Source: an uncultured virus (IMG/VR IMGVR_UViG_3300006919_000002)
Taxonomy: Duplodnaviria > Heunggongvirae > Uroviricota > Caudoviricetes
Length of the DNA: 64,000 nucleotides
Reading direction: 5' to 3' (one strand)
IMG/VR virus record: IMGVR_UViG_3300006919_000002
The position numbers and the translations under genes are program-made. This document shows, piece by piece, positions 8,186 through 51,116 of this stretch (positions are counted from its first letter, which is position 1; each line of letters starts with the position of its first letter). The notes under the pieces were generated by a model, which was not told where the DNA came from, did not search any database, and saw only the letters and a program-made list of their open reading frames with translations.

Positions 8186-8473
8186 TTAAAAGGGTTCAAA
8201 AGGATCTTCGCCATCTTCTTCCTCTGGGGCAACGCAAGCAGCAAGTTCTGCTAATTCTAAATCAGTTGGAACATCAAAATCAATTTGAATATTTTCATTA
8301 TCCATAATCTCTTTTACTGCTTGCCATTCTAATAATCGCTGATAATAAAGAGTTAATAGGGCTGAATGTAATTCTTCCCATGTCATGTCTTTAGCTTGTA
8401 TCTCTGCTTTTCGCATTGAAAACTGAAGTTCTAATGGAAGAACAAATTCTTGTGGTTCAGGCGTGTTTTCCAT
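8186..8473 (-). CDS. NblA-like phycobilisome degradation protein
   Basis: LPLELQFSMRKAEIQAKDMTWEEL...LLTLYYQ aligns by eye with NblA LSLEQQF..R....Q...MS.EQ...L..LY.Q; GGAGG RBS. Confidence 0.6.
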   Translation of the reverse strand: MENTPEPQEFVLPLELQFSMRKAEIQAKDMTWEELHSALLTLYYQRLLEWQAVKEIMDNENIQIDFDVPTDLELAELAACVAPEEEDGEDPFEPF

Positions 8474-36449: not shown

Positions 36450-38639
36450 TCAACCTCTCATGTTCTGTATAAATGATTTTAACTGAGCTTGGGCTCTAGG
36501 ATTACCTTGATTCGCTTCTACTTGTAAAGCTCTTAATTCTCTTGAAGCATCAAAAGAAGCACGTCTTTCTAGTTCTTTAGAAGCTGCAGCAGCTGCTCTA
36601 GTATTTCCCTTCTGGGTCGCACCTTCTACAAAATTTTGTATTTGTTGATCACTAAGAGCAGAAAATTTACTACCTTTTTTCTCGGATTCCCCATAAGAGG
36701 GATCAGTTGGTTTACGATACGCTGCTTTGCTATATTCATAACCTAATGTGCCATATTCTGGAGTACCGTATTCACCTGCCTTTTTAATAGCACCAGGGGC
36801 ATAAGCTCTTTCCAAACCATAAACACCAACACCTCCAAGAGATCCAAAATTAGGTTCTTCTGTAGGTTCTAATATTCTCCTGCCCTCAATATAAGGTTGC
36901 TCTTCAGGTCTAGGAGCTAAATCTTCTCTAGCAACTTTACTAGCACCTCTAATAGAAGTTTTACTTGCAGCTTTATCTAAAGGTTCAAGATTAACTAAAT
37001 ACTCAGCGCCTGCTTCCAGGGGTTCTGGAATTGGGTTGATATCTTTAAGATTAGAAACAGTATGAATCCCTTCAGGTGTGTCTAAATCATCAGGAACAGT
37101 GGTAGAAGAAACAGGACCTTGATATCTTGAGCCAAGTAATTCTTCATAATCTTTTGCATACTGTTGTCTCTCCCGTCTTTCCATATAAGCTCTAAGATTT
37201 TTTTCATGCTCTAAACCCGTAACCTTATCGTATCTACCTTGAGAATATTCTGGTTGAATTTGATATTTATATCTTGCTGGAACACTACGAACAGAAGCTA
37301 ACTGCGTATATTTCCAGGCACCCTCAGCTTGGTCTGTTGGTAAACCATCCGGGAGTGAAGCTGCGACCTGATTGATTGCAGCATCTGCAAATTCTTGTGG
37401 TGCAGGCTGCTGACGACCAGTTAAATAATATTGTTTAGCCATGTCTTCCATGATTTCGATCTGACCTAAATCAAGATCTTCATTACGCTGCAAACTTTGC
37501 ATCACACGACCAGTTTGCTGGTCAGCACCAGTATCTACCGCTTCGACTGATTGCTCAGATACCAGAGGACGTCTGGCATTTTGTTTTTCAACAAGAGTTT
37601 CAGCTTGAAGTTCTGCCAGTAATCTTTCGCCTTTTCCAATAACCTTGGCTTCTTGTGCCCGATCAGCTTGTCTTATGCGACGAATCTCTGCGGCTTCTCT
37701 TTCATCTAATAAAACATCAACAGGATCTCTTCCTTTCCTCAAAACAGAAGAAGGACCTGGAGCAACAGCACCAGTGCTTTCTACATAAGAACGAGGTGTC
37801 ATTGCAGCAGGAAGTGCTGGTACATCCTTACCAGTACCTTTTGTTCTGTAGAACAAGTCAGCCATATCCATATTGCCTTGCAATATGTCTAATTCTTGGA
37901 ATCTTTCCGGAGAAGTTTCTCTTGCCCTTGCTAAATACTCAGGCAAAGGCTCTTCACGTCCTGTTCTAGCTGAAATATCTACATCAACACCTTTAGGAGT
38001 GAATTGTGCATCTGCGCTCGTACCAGCGCCGCGAGGATTTCTACGAAGTGTTTCTTGAATAATTCTTTGTTTTCTTCCAACTGCTGTTTCTTCAGGTAAA
38101 GCTAAGGTTGATGGGGAAACTTCTATAGTAGAACTTAAATCTTGGTAAATATCTCCAAAACTTCCAGTCTTAGCTGTAGGGGCGCTAGTAGTAACGTCTT
38201 GAACAGAAACTTTCTGAATCGGAATATCTGTAGTTCTAGCTCTAGGGGCGGTTCGCGTCCCAGGAGCACTAGGAGTAACATCTTGAACAGAAACTTTTTC
38301 AACCGGAATATTTGTTTTATTTAAATCAACTGTTCTTACACCAGTCGTTGCACCTGCATCTTTTGGTCTTACTACATTTGCAAGTGCGTCTCGAAGCTTT
38401 CCAAACCTTCCACCAGTAGCAAGAGCTGCTGTACCGGCACCTAAACCAGCAACTAAGGCTGTTTTACCAGCCATATCAATAAAATTACCTCGATCTAACT
38501 CTTCTTTCGTAGCTGAAAGCTGTCCTTGACGAAATCCAAGTACTTGAGGTGCAATCTCTGCTCTTTCTTGCGCATCTCTAGGTACAGGAGTGCCAGTAGC
38601 TCTGCTGTAGGCGTAAAAATCAGCTTCAGATAACGGCAT
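36450..38639 (-). CDS. Large hypothetical protein (729 aa), first gene of the late arm
   Basis: ORF track; internal repeat IPVEKVSVQDVTPSAP / IPIQKVSVQDVTTSAP. Confidence 0.75.
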   Translation of the reverse strand: MPLSEADFYAYSRATGTPVPRDAQERAEIAPQVLGFRQGQLSATKEELDRGNFIDMAGKTALVAGLGAGTAALATGGRFGKLRDALANVVRPKDAGATTGVRTVDLNKTNIPVEKVSVQDVTPSAPGTRTAPRARTTDIPIQKVSVQDVTTSAPTAKTGSFGDIYQDLSSTIEVSPSTLALPEETAVGRKQRIIQETLRRNPRGAGTSADAQFTPKGVDVDISARTGREEPLPEYLARARETSPERFQELDILQGNMDMADLFYRTKGTGKDVPALPAAMTPRSYVESTGAVAPGPSSVLRKGRDPVDVLLDEREAAEIRRIRQADRAQEAKVIGKGERLLAELQAETLVEKQNARRPLVSEQSVEAVDTGADQQTGRVMQSLQRNEDLDLGQIEIMEDMAKQYYLTGRQQPAPQEFADAAINQVAASLPDGLPTDQAEGAWKYTQLASVRSVPARYKYQIQPEYSQGRYDKVTGLEHEKNLRAYMERRERQQYAKDYEELLGSRYQGPVSSTTVPDDLDTPEGIHTVSNLKDINPIPEPLEAGAEYLVNLEPLDKAASKTSIRGASKVAREDLAPRPEEQPYIEGRRILEPTEEPNFGSLGGVGVYGLERAYAPGAIKKAGEYGTPEYGTLGYEYSKAAYRKPTDPSYGESEKKGSKFSALSDQQIQNFVEGATQKGNTRAAAAASKELERRASFDASRELRALQVEANQGNPRAQAQLKSFIQNMRG

Positions 38640-38728
38640 TTGAATTTATTTTTTATTTTTAACCTCTTTGTATTCTATATCTTAGATATTCATGTTTTAT
38701 AGTAGAGAAGTGCAATAAAAGTTTTGTA

Positions 38729-38938
38729 ATGGATGTCGAAACACGTAAGAAACGTGTGGAAGGTCTAGAAGCTATTAAATCAAAAGCTCTAGACATGGCT
38801 CACCAGGGTGCTGATTCGTTTGTAGTGCGTGACTTTATCACGGATGCGAAAAAAACCTTGGCGTATGAACTTCCAGATGAGGAGGCATTCCGTAAAGCAG
38901 TCAAGGCAACTTCGACTTATAAGGCACAAAAAAGGTAA
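38729..38938 (+). CDS. Hypothetical protein
   Basis: ORF track; followed by a terminator. Confidence 0.7.
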   Translation: MDVETRKKRVEGLEAIKSKALDMAHQGADSFVVRDFITDAKKTLAYELPDEEAFRKAVKATSTYKAQKR

Positions 38939-38968
38939 TAAATTAAAATTAACTCTTTCAAACTAATC

Positions 38969-38994
38969 GCCGGGGATAAAACCCCGGCTTTTTT
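38969..38994 (+). terminator. Intrinsic terminator
   Basis: GCCGGGG-ATAAAA-CCCCGGC-TTTTTT. Confidence 0.85.
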
Positions 38995-39312
38995 GTGTGA
39001 TTTTTGGGGCTAATTAGGGAAATATAGTACAAAACCAATAAAAGTACACTATTTTTTTAACAAAAGGGCCGTATATATACCCAAATAGGATTAAAAATTT
39101 CCTGACGGGTCTCACACACCCCCGCCGACCGCGATTGCGTATAGAAAAAAAAGAAAGCGGGGGATGGTACCACATGAAACTTTGGTGGCACACGAAATTC
39201 CCCGCTGAATTGTCAGGAAATCACCACATTTCCCGCACAAATTGGCGCCGGCTCCTCCCCGCTGGGTCTTCGGGATAGAACAGTTTGGACAAAGGGAAGA
39301 AGGGAGGGGTCA

Positions 39313-39339
39313 AGGGGGGTGCGCATCCTCACCACGCAC
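39313..39339 (+). ncRNA. H-type pseudoknot leader, family C variant
   Basis: AGGGGG GTGCG CA TCCT CACCA CGCAC; GTGCG/CGCAC covaries with CTGCG/CGCAG of the other copies. Confidence 0.6.
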
Positions 39340-39365
39340 ACACGTCACACTACCAGGAGTTACTA

Positions 39366-39515
39366 ATGACTCAGCAACAACTCGATCAACTTCGTTCTGC
39401 AATTGATAACCTTGCAGATCTTTGTCGCGAGACTCATGACACTGATCTCGAACTTATCTTCGACGATCTTTGTGGTTATTGGATCCAGAAGTCTGAGTTC
39501 TTTTCGGCAGATTAA
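39366..39515 (+). CDS. Early hypothetical protein (49 aa)
   Basis: CAGGAG RBS then MTQQQLDQLRSAIDNL. Confidence 0.7.
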   Translation: MTQQQLDQLRSAIDNLADLCRETHDTDLELIFDDLCGYWIQKSEFFSAD

Positions 39516-39522
39516 TGCTGTT

Positions 39523-39591
39523 CTGATAGCTGGTGCGAAGGGAGGTTCGATTCCTCCCATCAGTTTTGCCTACAGCGGAGATAGGCACCGC
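39523..39591 (+). ncRNA. tRNA-like element plus pseudoknot, copy 1
   Basis: CTGAT/ATCAG stem, GGGAGG-TTCGATT-CCTCCC T-arm, then TGCCT..GCGG..AGGCA-CCGC. Confidence 0.7.
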
Positions 39592-39608
39592 ACAACAGGA
39601 GATACCCA

Positions 39609-39761
39609 ATGGGTATGCGTCAGAAGCTTGCACTGTCGATGGCGATGGCCGCTAAGGCTTTGGCTGAAGATCAGAGCAAGGAGAAGTTCCAGGTGCAGAT
39701 GGATCAGGCTCGCTACAAGTTAGCGAACTGGATTGCACCGAAAGGAAAGCTGATCCGTTGA
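39609..39761 (+). CDS. Early hypothetical protein (50 aa)
   Basis: CAGGAG RBS; MGMRQKLALSMAMAAKALAEDQ (read manually). Confidence 0.65.
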   Translation: MGMRQKLALSMAMAAKALAEDQSKEKFQVQMDQARYKLANWIAPKGKLIR

Positions 39762-39821
39762 AGCGGGTTGGGAGGTGCGAACCCTCCCACAGCTATTGCC
39801 CTCAGTGGAGATGGGCACCAC
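39748..39821 (+). ncRNA. tRNA-like element plus pseudoknot, copy 2
   Basis: AGCTG/CAGCT stem, GGGAGG-TGCGAAC-CCTCCC, then TGCCC..GTGG..GGGCA-CCAC. Confidence 0.7.
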
Positions 39822-39837
39822 ACACTAGGAGGACGCT

Positions 39838-40002
39838 ATGTCTTTTGAGGAGTTGACCAAGGATCAGATCCTTTGTGTCCTTGAAAACTTGCACAAAGAT
39901 GCAAGTGATTGGCACGAAGATTTTGGTATAGCGTATGGGCTCAGCTACGACGAATCGTTGTCGTTGATGTTCCATCATTTGTGGGTTGCTTTAAAAAGCT
40001 GA
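39838..40002 (+). CDS. Early hypothetical protein (54 aa)
   Basis: AGGAGG RBS; MSFEELTKDQILCVLENLH (read manually). Confidence 0.7.
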   Translation: MSFEELTKDQILCVLENLHKDASDWHEDFGIAYGLSYDESLSLMFHHLWVALKS

Positions 40003-40070
40003 TCCGTTGAAGCGGGTTGGGAGGTGCGAACCCTCCCACAGCTATTGCCCTCAGTGGAGATGGGCACCAC
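39997..40070 (+). ncRNA. tRNA-like element plus pseudoknot, copy 3
   Basis: 79-bp exact repeat: 39746-39824 = 39995-40073. Confidence 0.7.
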
Positions 40071-40086
40071 ACAACAGGAGGTTCCT

Positions 40087-40281
40087 GTGGCAAAGTTCAT
40101 ACCTACTTCTTTTGAGGTGTCACTGACACAGGAAGAAGTTTGGATCTTGCAAGAAGCACTGGAGATGCTTCGTTCACATAGAGAAGAATCTATGCTGTTC
40201 ACATCAGAACTTGTAGATCCTTTGCCTGTTGGTCGTCTTGAAACTCTTATCAAAGAGTTCAAGCAAGCAACAGGAAACTGA
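40087..40281 (+). CDS. Early hypothetical protein
   Basis: AGGAGG RBS, GTG start; MAKFIPTSFEVSLTQEEVWILQEAL. Confidence 0.7.
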   Translation: MAKFIPTSFEVSLTQEEVWILQEALEMLRSHREESMLFTSELVDPLPVGRLETLIKEFKQATGN

Positions 40282-40351
40282 GTCCGTAAACGCGGCGCAG
40301 GGAGGTGCAAGTCCTCCCACAGTTATTGCCCTCAGTGGAGATGGGCACCAC
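40276..40351 (+). ncRNA. tRNA-like element plus pseudoknot, copy 4
   Basis: AACTG/CAGTT stem (compensatory), GGGAGG-TGCAAGT-CCTCCC, same pseudoknot as copies 2-3. Confidence 0.7.
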
Positions 40352-40368
40352 ACAATGACTTAACTTCA

Positions 40369-40572
40369 ATGAACACCTTTCTTATTCATAGCCAGACCCG
40401 CAAGTCTGGCTATTCATTTGAGATTAATTCTCAACAACAAGCTGTCAAAGTGAAGAAGATTCACTACGTGGATCCAAACCTAGATGCTGTAAAGTATTTA
40501 ACTCTTCCTGATGCAAGGAAGTTTTACAAACTTCTTAAGCAAGAAGAGCACGAGAAGTTTGGTGACTTCTAA
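40369..40572 (+). CDS. Early hypothetical protein
   Basis: ORF track. Confidence 0.7.
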   Translation: MNTFLIHSQTRKSGYSFEINSQQQAVKVKKIHYVDPNLDAVKYLTLPDARKFYKLLKQEEHEKFGDF

Positions 40573-40643
40573 CCAACATGGTGAAGGGGGGTTCGACTCC
40601 CCCCGTTGGTATCGCCCATCACATTATTCCCTTGGGCAAGGAA
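40572..40643 (+). ncRNA. tRNA-like element plus divergent pseudoknot, copy 5
   Basis: ACCAAC/GTTGGT stem, GGGGGG-TTCGACT-CCCCCC T-arm, then GCCCA..TTCC..TGGGC..GGAA. Confidence 0.6.
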
Positions 40644-40653
40644 AACTTTAAAC

Positions 40654-40854
40654 ATGAATTCCACTACACATCCTGCTATTGGTATTGTTCTTGGCGTTGG
40701 AATCGGTATCCTAATTACAGTTGGCTTGCAAAGTATTATCAACAAGCGAACAATTGCAACTTGCTATGAAGATCCCCACCGTCAACTCATTCTTTTGCGC
40801 TCTATTATTGGCAACAGTTACTACTGCGTTGAGTCTAAGTACTTGCCAGACTGA
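40654..40854 (+). CDS. Early membrane protein
   Basis: MNSTTHPAIGIVLGVGIGILITVGL transmembrane segment. Confidence 0.65.
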   Translation: MNSTTHPAIGIVLGVGIGILITVGLQSIINKRTIATCYEDPHRQLILLRSIIGNSYYCVESKYLPD

Positions 40855-40879
40855 AGTGTATCTCGCACATCAGCAGGAA

Positions 40880-41002
40880 ATGCTTAGCGTTGAAGACGAT
40901 CAAAGTCAAGGCTACGATTGGTGGCTTTGCATTCCAGGTTCTGCGCCTTCTGATCCATTTGAATCAGATGAGATTGCTACTGACAAGACACAACAGATTT
41001 GA
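40880..41002 (+). CDS. Small acidic hypothetical protein (40 aa)
   Basis: CAGGA upstream; C-terminal part of track ORF 40721-41002. Confidence 0.4.
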   Translation: MLSVEDDQSQGYDWWLCIPGSAPSDPFESDEIATDKTQQI

Positions 41003-41043
41003 CTCTTGCACTAAGCCTCTTCGGAGGTTTTCTGCAGGACTCA
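40999..41043 (+). repeat. 45-bp direct repeat forming a long UUCG hairpin, copy 1
   Basis: TTGACTCTTGCACTAAGCCTCTTCGGAGGTTTTCTGCAGGACTCA. Confidence 0.85.
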
Positions 41044-41076
41044 CCTGAGTTCTGTTTGTACTTCACATCACCTGAC

Positions 41077-41340
41077 ATGCGTAACTACGAACAGCTGCAC
41101 TACCAAGAAGGTTGCCAGCGTCTGTATCGAGTCACTTGGTATGGTGGCTCAAGCAACCAACTGCACTTTCAGAAGTGGGGTATTGTTGCTACCCCATCAT
41201 TTGATGGTGAGCCGGAATGGATCGAACTTGATTGCCGACCCATGATGGAGTTTCCAACCAGGGTTAAAGAACTCTGGCAAGAGATGCGTGACTACTATCA
41301 TCACTGTCTCGAAATGGAATCGTATCGAGTGTTTAATTGA
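41077..41340 (+). CDS. Early hypothetical protein
   Basis: ATG after the hairpin repeat: MRNYEQLHYQEG. Confidence 0.7.
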   Translation: MRNYEQLHYQEGCQRLYRVTWYGGSSNQLHFQKWGIVATPSFDGEPEWIELDCRPMMEFPTRVKELWQEMRDYYHHCLEMESYRVFN

Positions 41341-41381
41341 CTCTTGCACTAAGCCTCTTCGGAGGTTTTCTGCAGGACTCA
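41337..41381 (+). repeat. 45-bp direct repeat forming a long UUCG hairpin, copy 2
   Basis: Identical to 40999-41043. Confidence 0.85.
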
Positions 41382-41415
41382 ATATCCTGCTGTTCACCCT
41401 ACTCAATTTATTCTC

Positions 41416-41616
41416 ATGGTTAAATGGAGACTGAAGCGTGGGTATGGATCTCACGTTGAACTTGACATGTACACCAGAAGATCTAATGGTCCTGGTAACG
41501 CAGTCTTGTTTTTGCTGGCATCATCGGTGATGTCACTTATTATCAGTGCCGTAATTGGTGTTGATCTTACCAATGTCAATCAACAGTACCAGGAAGGAAC
41601 ACATGTCCAGCCTTGA
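41416..41616 (+). CDS. Early membrane protein
   Basis: ORF track; hydrophobic AVLFLLASSVMSLIISAVIGV. Confidence 0.6.
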   Translation: MVKWRLKRGYGSHVELDMYTRRSNGPGNAVLFLLASSVMSLIISAVIGVDLTNVNQQYQEGTHVQP

Positions 41617-41800: not shown

Positions 41801-41830
41801 TAGGGGGCTGCGCATCCTATAAACGCAGAC
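41801..41830 (+). ncRNA. H-type pseudoknot leader, family C
   Basis: TAGGGGGCTGCGCATCCTATAAACGCAGAC. Confidence 0.7.
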
Positions 41831-41860
41831 ACACAACACTTCACTTTACCGAGAACAATC

Positions 41861-46105: not shown

Positions 46106-46178
46106 CGGCCTGTAGTCCAACGGCAGAGACAGAGGACTTAAAATCCTTCCAGTGTGAGTTCGAATCTCACCAGGCCGA
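46106..46178 (+). tRNA. tRNA-Leu(TAA) with short variable loop
   Basis: CGGCCTG/CAGGCCG acceptor, GAGGA-CTTAAAA-TCCTT, GTGAG-TTCGAAT-CTCAC; TATACT -10 at 46035. Confidence 0.9.
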
Positions 46179-46209
46179 CTACCTCCTTCATTAATTCACT
46201 TGATTTACT

Positions 46210-49008: not shown

Positions 49009-49242
49009 ATGTCTTACATCATTGCTTGCTGGAAACAAGAAAAGCCTTATGGAATTTCTTGTGACAAATCTACAAACACTTTTGAATTAATTCCATTAGA
49101 TTCATGTACAGCGTTTAACAAAGTCTATTCGCATCCTTATCGAGCAGGAGCGCAACAGATTTTAAATTGGATTAATAAAAATGTCAAAGAACTATCCAGT
49201 CAAAACCTCTCAATTCAAGATGAATGCCGATTCAGAAAATGA
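49009..49242 (+). CDS. Hypothetical protein
   Basis: ORF track. Confidence 0.6.
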   Translation: MSYIIACWKQEKPYGISCDKSTNTFELIPLDSCTAFNKVYSHPYRAGAQQILNWINKNVKELSSQNLSIQDECRFRK

Positions 49243-51043
49243 AACATGGTTAGTTTTTGACATAGAAACAGATGGACTTTATGATGCAGTTACAAAAACA
49301 TTTTGCATCGTTGCACATGATATCTATAGAAAACAAACTGTTACTTACGGGCCTGATTGCATTGATGCTGCTCTTGACTATCTGGCTCAGGCTGATGTTT
49401 TAATTGGACACAACATTATATTTTATGACTTACCAGTATTGAAAAAACTTTATGAGTTTGAATTCAATGGACAAGTCATTGACACATTGGTCTGCACCAG
49501 ACTTATTTGGCCCAAGGAAAAACTATTTGAACTCGACTCAGATCTTTATGAGGACAAAACACCATCGAATCTTAAAGGTGGTGCGAGTCTCAAGGCGTGG
49601 GGTTACCGTTTGTCGGATCATAAGATTGAATTCAAAGATTTTGATGAGTATTCAGATAGCATGCTTGCGTATTGTAAGCAAGATGTTAACGTTACCACTA
49701 AACTTTTTAATCTTATTAAAAAAGAATCTTATTCCCAAGCCGCTCTTAAACTGGAGCATGAATTTGCTCAGGCAATTAATAGACAAATTAGATCTGGCAT
49801 TCCATTTGATGTTGATCAATGCATTGATCTTGTGGATTTGCTACGAAGAAAGCAAAAAGAATTAGAAATAAAATTAAAAGAATTATTTCCTCCCATTGAA
49901 CACAAAGAATGGTTTATTCCTAAAGTCAATAGCAAAGCAAGAGGATATACAAAAGGAGTTCCATTTGAAAAGATTAGAGTTGAATTTTTTAATCCAGGCT
50001 CACGTCAGCAGATTGTTGAACGTTTAAAACTTAAATACAATTGGACTCCTAAAAAGAAAACAGATAAAGGAAATCCAATATTAAATGATGAAGTATTAGA
50101 ACAACTTCCTTTTCCAGAAGCAAAGCTTTTGGCAGAATACATGCTAATCCAAAAACGATTGGGGCAAATTGCTGATGGATCCAACGCTTGGCTCAAGCTT
50201 GTCAACAATTCTGATGGTCGTATGCATGGTGATGTTATTACTAATGGGTGTATTACAGGCCGTTGTGCGCATCGTAATCCCAATGCCGCGCAAGTTCCGG
50301 CAGGTTATTCCCCTTATGGTAAAGAATGTAGGTCTTTATTCCATGCACCAGAAGGATGGGATTTGATTGGTATCGATGCCAAAGCACTTGAGTTAAGATG
50401 TCTTGCTGGTTATCTTGCAATCTGGGATGACGGTAAATATGGTGAGCTTGTAACAGATCCTAATGGAGATATACATACATACAACCAAAAACAATTTGGT
50501 GTGGCTACCAGGGATATTTCAAAGCGTTTGCTTTATGGAATGTTATATGGTTGTGGCTATTTAAAAGCAGGTACAATCATTGATCCTAATTGTAAAGATC
50601 AAAACAAATTAAAAGAACTAGGCAGCAATGCAATCAATGGTTTTATGGAGGGTGTTCCTGCGTTAAAGAAATTAAAGAATTTAATAGAAGAAACAATAGA
50701 AGATCGTAAGTATTTAATTGGATTAGATCGTAGAGTTCTTTATTGCCGTTCAGCATTCAAAGGATTAAATGTTTTGCTGCAATCAGCTGGTGCAATCTTG
50801 ATGAAACAAGTTGTTATTAATGTTCATAATAACCTCAAAGAAGTTGGGCTGGAGTACGGGAAAGATTGGGAACAAATGCTAATGGTTCATGATGAAATTC
50901 AGATCGCTTGTGCTCCACAACATACTGAAACAATCCGTGAACAAGCCTTGAGAGCTTTCCCCCAGGCTCAAGAATTCTTTGGATTTAGATGTCTGATTGA
51001 AGGGGATTCCAGAGTAGGATCTAACTGGTTTGAAACACACTAG
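49220..51043 (+). CDS. polA: Family A DNA polymerase, T7 gp5-like (3'-5' exonuclease plus polymerase)
   Basis: ExoI FDIETDG, ExoII GHNIIFYD, FNPGSRQQI, motif A DAKALELR, motif B RDISKRLLYGMLYG, motif C VHDE; track start 49181. Confidence 0.95.
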   Translation: MNADSENETWLVFDIETDGLYDAVTKTFCIVAHDIYRKQTVTYGPDCIDAALDYLAQADVLIGHNIIFYDLPVLKKLYEFEFNGQVIDTLVCTRLIWPKEKLFELDSDLYEDKTPSNLKGGASLKAWGYRLSDHKIEFKDFDEYSDSMLAYCKQDVNVTTKLFNLIKKESYSQAALKLEHEFAQAINRQIRSGIPFDVDQCIDLVDLLRRKQKELEIKLKELFPPIEHKEWFIPKVNSKARGYTKGVPFEKIRVEFFNPGSRQQIVERLKLKYNWTPKKKTDKGNPILNDEVLEQLPFPEAKLLAEYMLIQKRLGQIADGSNAWLKLVNNSDGRMHGDVITNGCITGRCAHRNPNAAQVPAGYSPYGKECRSLFHAPEGWDLIGIDAKALELRCLAGYLAIWDDGKYGELVTDPNGDIHTYNQKQFGVATRDISKRLLYGMLYGCGYLKAGTIIDPNCKDQNKLKELGSNAINGFMEGVPALKKLKNLIEETIEDRKYLIGLDRRVLYCRSAFKGLNVLLQSAGAILMKQVVINVHNNLKEVGLEYGKDWEQMLMVHDEIQIACAPQHTETIREQALRAFPQAQEFFGFRCLIEGDSRVGSNWFETH

Positions 51044-51116
51044 CTTCCGTAGCTCAGTGGAATAGAGCATCCGCCTTCTAAGCGGTTGGTCGCAGGTTCG
51101 AGTCCTGCCGGAAGCG
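51043..51116 (+). tRNA. tRNA-Arg(TCT)
   Basis: GCTTCCG/CGGAAGC acceptor, CCGC-CTTCTAA-GCGG, GCAGG-TTCGAGT-CCTGC; no CCA. Confidence 0.93.

Follow-up and report, generated by a model that had tools for sequence, protein, structure and literature searches.

Candidate tRNA-like processing and stability elements between small genes of a cyanophage

In a 64,000-nucleotide (nt) stretch of DNA from an uncultured virus (IMG/VR record IMGVR_UViG_3300006919_000002; this whole stretch is called the window below) five structured RNA elements were confirmed on the plus strand at five consecutive gene junctions. Each of them consists of a fold that resembles the acceptor stem and T arm of a transfer RNA (tRNA), designated here as part A, and of a second compact structure 3' of it, designated as part B. 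The explanation which fits them best, attractive although it falls a little short of probable, is that an RNase Z-type cut after the discriminator-like base would leave one messenger RNA (mRNA) with a tRNA-like 3' cap and the following mRNA with a structured 5' cap. A wider form of this explanation, which is held only tentatively, would see in the elements the punctuation marks of cyanophages: tRNA look-alikes that recruit RNase Z and cut the early transcripts, with a 3' cap that guards the stop codon and may receive CCA, with a non-classical 5' pseudoknot or hairpin that, like a bacterial equivalent of exoribonuclease-resistant RNAs, protects from RNase J and RNase E, and with an additional role as joints for the shuffling of host-takeover genes between unrelated phage lineages. 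The new component would be the use of tRNA-like processing signals in phages and bacteria, together with an enclosed stop codon, a paired 5' cap and the arrangement in arrays, while tRNA-like signals themselves are already known.

Fold and coordinates of the elements

The original prediction, which was made from the letters of the window without database searches, listed five intergenic elements with their stems and loops, and all of them are present at the indicated places on the plus strand:

39523..39564, plus strand: element 1, tRNA-like minihelix; T arm 39540–39558, loop UUCGAUU, no side hairpin; outer stem 39523–27/39559–63 (5 base pairs, bp) or 39529–35/39558–64 (7 bp, two of them G-U; 7+5 = 12)
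39748..39794, plus strand: element 2, three-way junction; outer stem 39748–52/39790–94, side hairpin 39754–39767, T arm with a 7-bp stem 39769–75/39783–89 and loop UGCGAAC
39795..39796, plus strand: A-U linker after element 2, the discriminator-like A and then U
39997..40043, plus strand: element 3, 98% identical to element 2 over 87 nt; loop UGCGAAC
40276..40324, plus strand: element 4, three-way junction; outer stem 40276–80/40320–24, side hairpin, T arm 40300–40318, loop UGCAAGU
40572..40610, plus strand: element 5, minihelix; 6+6 = 12 bp, ACCAAC/GUUGGU on GGGGGG/CCCCCC, loop UUCGACU, no side hairpin

The support for the proposed fold is provided by covariation in homologues and not by thermodynamics. 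Pair counting in an alignment of 91 sequences (90 distinct) indicated that 98.4% of 1440 cells of the three-way junction are paired, compared with 82.4% in column shuffles and 33–48% with slid partners. The T stem is paired in 99.7% with double changes at six of its seven pairs, the outer stem in 95.3% with double changes at two of five pairs, and the loop columns are invariant or nearly so. The G-U pairs are abundant (the two outer pairs have 31 and 17 of them, for example, and the side hairpin has 90 U-G), which shows that the structure belongs to the RNA of the plus-strand transcript only. Since the side hairpin was pre-set by the search pattern, it says nothing on covariation. The RNAalifold analysis of the same alignment recovered the side hairpin and the T stem and did not recover the outer stem. 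The acceptor/T coaxial helix of constant length with its T-type loop, as it had been originally proposed, was found to be conserved, strand-specific and covarying in the homologues, both in the alignment and in the covariance model built from it (model R1).

In model R1 copies 2–4 score 52–80 bits (79.8 bits for element 2, where the minimum-energy fold reproduces the structure, and 52 bits for element 4), and the divergent copies 1 and 5 come next: element 1 has rank 4 in the window with 14 bits (E 0.07), and element 5 scores 12.3 bits (E 0.24). In copies 2–4 a side hairpin UCCG-N5/6-CGGG is inserted between the outer stem and the T arm and forms the three-way junction; the bare minihelix, which had been assumed throughout, is retained for copies 1 and 5 and has to be abandoned for copies 2–4. 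The T-arm pattern gave six matches in the window versus a mean of 0.03 in 100 shuffles. A generic descriptor (T-loop hairpin and outer stem with an 11–13 nt 3' strand) matched the five elements, a true tRNA-Arg, one AT-rich place on the plus strand with two overlapping matches and one place on the minus strand, and gave 0–6 matches on both strands of 20 mononucleotide shuffles.

The key feature of the family is a constant distance. The coaxial helix is split as 5+7 in the common form, as 7+5 or 6+6 in the variant A2 and as 6+6 in copy 5, and a variant A3 possesses an additional hairpin with the look of a small cloverleaf; in the window the splits of copies 1–5 are 7+5 (in the alternative pairing), 5+7, 5+7, 5+1+6 and 6+6. 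In all these forms the T-type loop is constantly located 12 nt from the helix end, and a 12-nt helix length is what tRNA-processing enzymes measure. The 12-nt 3' strand of the original prediction is constant in the homologues, with the reservation that copy 1 has 11 nt in the pairing given there and reaches 12 in the alternative 7+5 pairing. The distance from the T-type loop to the GYGG of the pseudoknot, among the matches listed, is 22 nt in 77 and 23 nt in 15 of 93 viral contexts, and 22 nt in 73 and 23 nt in 18 of 92 metagenome contexts, where 22 nt is the sum of 12 nt of the helix, 2 of the linker, 5 of pseudoknot helix 1 and 3 of its loop. In most of the 91 alignment rows UUG or UUA comes after the discriminator-like base, and in none of them CCA; CCA directly after the discriminator blocks RNase Z. 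From the 12-nt ruler and the 2–3 nt linker the cut is predicted between the linker A and U with a new 5' end at 39796, and the equivalent positions would be 39566, 40045, 40326 and 40612.

As was supposed originally, the elements match no known family: Rfam gave no family for them in the window, in the region 38600–41600 at E up to 10 or in related loci, only three tRNAs pass the Rfam 15 gathering thresholds in the whole window, and the best match at an element is the T-arm part of cyanobacterial transfer-messenger RNA (10.7 bits, E 6.8). In the intrinsic terminator scan copies 2–5 were not flagged, and only the T arm of copy 1 was, with the tail ATCAGTTTTG.

Downstream structure and enclosed stop codon

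Part B begins 1–2 nt after the discriminator-like base, in agreement with the original prediction. The pseudoknot that had been predicted at every copy is found at copies 1–4 (four matches of the pseudoknot pattern in the window versus none in shuffles), and at copy 5 it is replaced by a plain hairpin:

39567..39591, plus strand: pseudoknot 1, UGCCU / ACA / GCGG / AGAU / AGGCA / CCGC; ATG at 39609
39797..39821, plus strand: pseudoknot 2, UGCCC / UCA / GUGG / AGAU / GGGCA / CCAC; Shine-Dalgarno (SD) sequence 39827–32, ATG 39838
40046..40070, plus strand: pseudoknot 3, sequence identical to pseudoknot 2
40327..40351, plus strand: pseudoknot 4; ATG at 40369
40614..40637, plus strand: plain hairpin in place of the pseudoknot, GCCCA/UGGGC with a 14-nt loop, 3 nt past element 5; ATG 40654
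40074..40089, plus strand: small SD/start hairpin ACAGG/CCUGU, which holds part of the SD sequence and the GUG start 40087–89

With the tRNA-like part as the sole criterion 154 unique tails were gathered; 68 of them belong to the pseudoknot type, and 67 of these 68 form all 5+4 pairs with a 3-nt first loop; AGAU is likewise invariant in 67 of 68. Both helices covary within this set (n=68): in helix 1 pair 2 is GC in 56 and AU in 12 tails and pair 5 is CG in 42, UA in 20 and UG in 6, and in helix 2 pair 2 is CG in 52, UA in 12, GC in 2 and AU in 2. The covarying pseudoknot was thus correctly recognized, but not its classical H-type coaxial form. In 68 of 68 tails the 3' strands of helix 1 and helix 2 are separated by 0 nt, the 4-nt AGAU lying at the helix junction, and on geometric reasoning such a 0-nt loop excludes a classical coaxial H-type knot with all nine pairs formed at once. 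By the same reasoning, helix 1 may be partly open, or the helices may alternate, or they may be packed side by side.

The remaining tails indicate that the sequence of part B is exchangeable. In an A1-only set an unrelated stable hairpin (−6.9 to −15.9 kcal/mol) begins 2–3 nt past the stem in 59 of the 62 tails without a pseudoknot; the linker between the stem and part B consists of 2–3 nt of A/U, and an A/C-rich leader followed by the start codon lies downstream of part B. Judged from these sequences, the 5' structure is interchangeable, being either a pseudoknot or an unrelated hairpin, and the role of the pseudoknot as an obligatory 5' shield, as had been suggested originally, is not sustained. 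The pseudoknot is also found without the tRNA-like part, and then it follows terminator-like hairpins or a second conserved hairpin motif (described below), as would be expected of a stand-alone 5' cap; in the metagenome contexts with a true pseudoknot, among the matches listed, 91 of 114 have a T-type hairpin at the fixed distance. Related loci also contain the SD/start hairpin with paired changes that switch GUG and AUG (CAGG..CCUGUG, CACGG..CCGUG, CAUGG..CCAUG), an observation from the listing without a formal count, and this suggests a translational control downstream of the pseudoknot.

The second property of the junctions is that the upstream gene ends inside part A. In 103 of 110 unique contexts, among the matches listed, the TGA of the conserved CTGATCC terminates a reading frame with 40 or more open codons ahead of it; for the remaining two frames the corresponding numbers are 6 and 25 of the 110. 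In an independent A2/A3 set a frame-closing stop is located in or at the 5' strand in 39 of 50 unique contexts, and one variant has UAA instead of UGA with compensating changes in the 3' strand. In the window the upstream stop is TGA in the outer stem of copies 3 (40000–40002, in its 5' strand) and 4 (40279–81), TGA in the side-hairpin loop of copy 2 (39759–61), TAA overlapping the first stem base of copy 5 (40570–72), and TAA just outside the stem of copy 1, 8 nt upstream (39513–39515). An RNase P cut at the 5' edge would strip a stop codon enclosed in the 5' strand, which makes RNase P unlikely as the selected event. Only a 3' cut of RNase Z type appears to fit intact genes, and RNase P, which the original prediction had named together with RNase Z, is disfavoured.

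Distribution, proposed processing and alternative explanations

The module is widely distributed in viral sequences. The scan of viral contigs with the side-hairpin motif revealed at least 122 loci and with the pseudoknot motif at least 123 loci, the latter with 2–4 copies per locus at spacings like those of the window; the A2 variant was found at 55 loci, and the scan of metagenome contigs gave at least 121 loci. The named phages carrying the element are only Synechococcus phage S-EIVl and two T7-like podoviruses, S-SBP1 and an uncultured Mediterranean phage. S-EIVl and four S-EIVl-like records (65–86 kb, three of them rated 100% complete) have strong R1 matches in one region of ~1–1.5 kb, where the descriptor finds 3–6 elements of mixed variants, and S-SBP1 possesses three elements in its first 1.4 kb. 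When 185,579 prokaryote genomes were scanned with one A1 pattern, the only match was on a 4.7-kb contig of a Bacteroidetes metagenome-assembled genome, so that the A1 form, the only variant scanned there, is not a host element.

According to the S-SBP1 transcriptome paper, the left-end small-gene region with the elements belongs to the early expression class (PMC7885011), which is in line with the early-region placement of the original prediction; the paper contains no mention of intergenic structures. The elements of the window are probably early as well, judging by their position only. Two further and more divergent elements were observed in the early region of S-SBP1 (L002, 575–650 and 925–990): one of them resembles a real tRNA 3' half with a 5-bp T stem, the loop UUCGAGU and a 7-nt acceptor-like strand, and the other has the 5+7 form with a 5-bp hairpin 2 nt later.

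In the proposed mechanism the polycistronic transcript would carry at each junction a module of two parts for RNA processing and stability. Part A, which is an acceptor-like stem on a T-arm-like hairpin with a 12-layer helix, a T-type loop and usually a side hairpin, would be taken by host RNase Z for a CCA-less precursor tRNA and cut after the discriminator-like base. A tRNA-like structure would then form the end of the upstream mRNA, where it would bar 3' exonucleases and hold the stop codon within a protected helix, and the downstream mRNA would start with 1–2 free nt followed by part B, which would hinder the 5'-end-dependent RNase E and RNase J. A host factor is favoured because the module is common to unrelated Synechococcus phage lineages (S-EIVl-like phages and unrelated T7-like podoviruses share it, in one small-gene region per genome) and because no RNA-processing domain was found by Pfam among the 78 window open reading frames (ORFs) scanned. 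The tRNA-Arg and tRNA-Leu genes of the window have no encoded CCA and are located between genes of the same strand; since the tRNAs of the phage lack encoded CCA, these transcripts must already be subject to a 3' cut of RNase Z type, and the pathway of CCA-less tRNA maturation that had been invoked originally finds a counterpart in the phage itself. Being strongly conserved, the modules would serve in addition, if only passively, as joints at which gene cassettes recombine.

Several facts weigh against this mechanism. The folding energies of single copies are only 1–2 standard deviations better than those of shuffles (z −1.0 to −2.0). The loop is T-like and not canonical: its second position is G and not U in copies 2–4 and in most relatives, and in the A2 variant the loop ends can pair, leaving a loop of 5 nt. 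ARAGORN indicated no tRNA at the elements and no tRNA genes in 19 related loci, and the Rfam tRNA model (RF00005) had no match in 38600–41600 at E up to 10 and none in 10 related loci at E up to 1. A helix that starts 1–2 nt after the cut might hinder RNase Z, and the A/U linker is in part compatible with the cyanobacterial RNase E signature, which has U at +2 (PMC8682795). The enclosed stop does not strictly exclude RNase P, since the true tRNA-Arg of the window shares 1 nt with the stop codon of the upstream polymerase gene, and at the t-elements of plant mitochondria mRNAs without a stop are produced by RNase P (PMC1920247). The metagenome contig ends provide no help and are uninformative on RNA ends: 6 of 162 matches lie within 100 nt of an end and none at the junction. 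Several viral and metagenome contigs were observed to end in or beside an element, which is likely due to assemblies broken at repeats and presents no evidence of RNA ends.

The 2–3 nt A/U segment exposed between two stable folds may alternatively be cut by RNase E, with the tRNA likeness serving mainly as a stable 3' cap, and this is unlikely. The cyanobacterial RNase E signature is A at −3/−4 and U at +2 in a single-stranded region, and the enzyme also helps to mature tRNAs, the levels of which drop on its inactivation (PMC8682795). If the junction ...CAGUU-AUU-GCC were cut before AUU, U would stand at +2 and A at −4, and part B follows ordinary terminator-like hairpins with U-rich tails as well. 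However, just 2–3 nt are free, positions −1 to −4 being part of the paired outer stem, and RNase E would not need a T-type loop at a constant 12-nt distance across the 5+7, 6+6 and 7+5 splits.

It is quite unlikely that no cleavage occurs and that the module is a structural insulator and translation-control unit, which would stop ribosomes and exonucleases and present the next start in a defined fold, perhaps as the operator of a regulatory protein. The stop codon built into the structure, the SD/start-codon hairpin with paired changes after many pseudoknots and the AGAU invariance, as expected of a binding site, are in accordance with such a unit. The operator function is weakened by the free exchange of part B between the pseudoknot and unrelated hairpins, and the insulator leaves the T-type loop and the fixed 12-nt helix unexplained.

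The elements sit at mosaic gene junctions, as the comparison of flanks by local alignment indicates: related upstream gene ends are joined to unrelated downstream sequence in 277 of 365 locus pairs, and related downstream starts to unrelated upstream sequence in 45 of 130, these counts being descriptive, since the rows include near-identical contigs and are not independent. Such combinations would be produced if the primary role of the elements were that of recombination cassettes, which shuffle small early genes between phages, the RNA structure being secondary. In support of this, copies 2 and 3 are 98% identical and their flanking genes are not, the region of S-SBP1 is a hypervariable island (PMC7885011), and a precedent exists in the PeSLs, which are promoter-terminator cassettes of T4-type phages (PMC2839356, PMC4122927). 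Nevertheless, a primary role of this kind is improbable: recombination needs sequence identity and not compensatory changes, the T stem exists in many fully compensated versions, and in the elements, unlike PeSLs, the consensus scan gave no sigma-70-type promoter. As a by-product, recombination is compatible with processing by RNase Z.

The release of the tRNA-like pieces as small stable trans-acting RNAs, for example decoys for tRNA-targeting defences or for tRNA-binding proteins, is highly improbable. Excised t-element RNA is stable in plant mitochondria (PMC1920247), and the shape and the number of copies per genome (3–6) would suit a decoy. But the pieces have no anticodon arm, their release needs a 5' cut that strips the upstream stop codon, and their position is strictly bound to gene ends and starts. 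Small ribozymes are common in phage genomes, and the elements are intergenic, highly conserved and located in such genomes; an undescribed self-cleaving ribozyme is nevertheless hardly credible, as Rfam, searched at E up to 10, gave no ribozyme match, the side hairpin is missing from copies 1 and 5, and A1, A2 and A3 share only the helix and the T-type loop, which makes the conserved core too small.

Three other candidates were rejected. An integration site (attP) is inconsistent with five copies that have differing compensated T stems and are all tied to gene ends, and a hammerhead reading of the CUGAU motif fails on junction residues that do not fit and on the lack of an Rfam match. The early region of T7-type phages is transcribed by the host polymerase. 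A phage promoter was rejected for the podovirus, where the elements lie in the early region (PMC7885011), and the scan of the window likewise gave no sigma-70 consensus.

Known systems and genome context

In animal mitochondria the tRNAs located between coding regions of one strand are cut out by tRNA-processing enzymes, which is known as tRNA punctuation. The overlap of tRNA-Arg with the polymerase stop codon in the window is a parallel to this system, whereas the five elements, unlike mitochondrial punctuation, are not tRNAs; having no anticodon arm and no ARAGORN or Rfam tRNA match, they can plausibly be used only as signals. The early RNase III sites of phage T7 are long irregular double-stranded hairpins, at which the host RNase produces single-gene mRNAs with stabilizing terminal structures. 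These are likewise structured intergenic signals in an early polycistronic transcript, but the longest helix of the present element has 12 layers and carries a T-type loop. The 3' end of an RNA is defined by a tRNA-like fold in MALAT1/mascRNA, and in the ompA-type stabilizer hairpins and exoribonuclease-resistant RNAs a structure 1–2 nt from the 5' end protects against 5'-dependent attack, all these cases concerning other organisms and enzymes than the phage module. No phage or bacterial case that joins a tRNA-like 3' end with a 5' protective structure was found, and the literature on exoribonuclease-resistant RNA, RNase J and phage gave none.

The closest counterparts, together with mitochondrial tRNA punctuation, are the t-elements of plant mitochondria, where RNase Z and RNase P cuts form mRNA 5' and 3' ends (PMC1920247), and the T7 early RNase III sites and the PeSLs are analogues in function or evolution. 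The t-elements and phage elements have in common a non-canonical tRNA-like fold with a conserved T arm inside an mRNA precursor, element ends that are expected to be mRNA ends, and the possibility of overlap with the end of a reading frame; the motif GGTTCRANYCC, used there to find t-elements, is present in window copies 1 and 5. Unlike t-elements, the present ones belong to a cyanobacterial phage, form arrays at consecutive junctions, enclose the stop systematically inside the stem, have a dedicated 5' hairpin or pseudoknot at a fixed distance and mostly G at the second loop position, and are known here from sequence alone. Like the PeSLs (PMC2839356, PMC4122927), they are conserved intergenic motifs beside small variable early genes at mosaic joints. 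They differ from PeSLs in that a consensus scan gave no promoter-like site within 39300–40650 on the plus strand, no U-tract terminator was found, and the conserved feature is a three-way junction with compensatory changes.

No description of the module was found in literature searches on cyanophages (S-EIVl and S-SBP1 included), phage tRNA-like signals, mRNA processing and pseudoknots. In a viral structured-RNA survey of 2023 (PMC10690425) four short motif strings were absent from six files of the partly searchable supplements, and the motif may be among its 8495 unnamed IMG/VR candidates. Regardless of the mechanism, the module presents an abundant structured-RNA family with strong covariation and without an Rfam model, and marks a variable early-gene region in S-EIVl-like freshwater cyanophages and in a marine podovirus clade. 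If the processing by RNase Z is true, it would be, as far as the literature shows, the first bacteriophage case of tRNA mimicry punctuating messages, a principle known from mitochondria. It would open to testing the separation and stabilization of cyanophage early mRNAs in hosts with RNase E/RNase J decay, and would make testable a programmed mRNA role for bacterial RNase Z and the ability of small 5' pseudoknots to block bacterial 5'-dependent nucleases. A module which, like this one, is short, modular and seemingly recognized by a host factor could also become a tool for multi-gene transcripts in cyanobacteria.

The window is that of a cyanophage on the basis of Pfam matches and synteny with S-EIVl. 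The structural and packaging genes occupy the minus strand up to ~38.6 kb, and the plus-strand arm from ~38.7 kb starts with small ORFs, which are followed by ThyX, DNA polymerase A, SSB and primase. The terminator scan placed an intrinsic terminator at 38969–38988, upstream of the small-ORF run. Pfam gave no match for any of the six small ORFs (39366..40854), no sigma-70-type promoter was predicted by a consensus scan on the plus strand of 38600–41273, and the nearest virus record (G001) had no match to the element region. ARAGORN found three true tRNAs in the window, all away from the elements, two of which are listed here with the small ORFs:

39366–39515, 39609–39761, 39838–40002, 40087–40281, 40369–40572 and 40654–40854, plus strand: six small ORFs, with an element at five of five junctions
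46106–46179: tRNA-Leu, without encoded CCA
51041–51116: tRNA-Arg, the first base of which is the last base of the DNA polymerase A stop TAG (ORF 49181–51043)

A 4-bp hairpin begins 1 nt past the discriminator of tRNA-Arg. The ORFs 39838–40002 and 40087–40281 around element 3 have a common N-terminal motif (SFEELT... and TSFEVSLT...) and may be diverged paralogues, though the adjacent elements are 98% identical. On the minus strand an ORF of 95 aa at 8186–8473 matches NblA, which takes part in phycobilisome degradation, below the threshold (22.8 bits versus a cut-off of 25), and this fits a cyanophage.

The second conserved motif consists of a G run, a hairpin and then an ACACA-rich leader, and occurs at 39313–39345, ahead of the ORF that opens the array (39366), and at 41802–41835, ahead of ORF 41861. 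Its hairpin shows a paired change (GUGCG...CGCAC versus CUGCG...CGCAG), and in the viral contig L001 (2703–2735) the motif directly precedes the pseudoknot; it may form the hairpin near the 5' end of primary transcripts. Just past the element array a 45-nt stretch with a UUCG-loop hairpin is directly and perfectly repeated at 40999–41043 and 41337–41381, 338 nt apart, and is a distinct repeat of intergenic or gene-start position.

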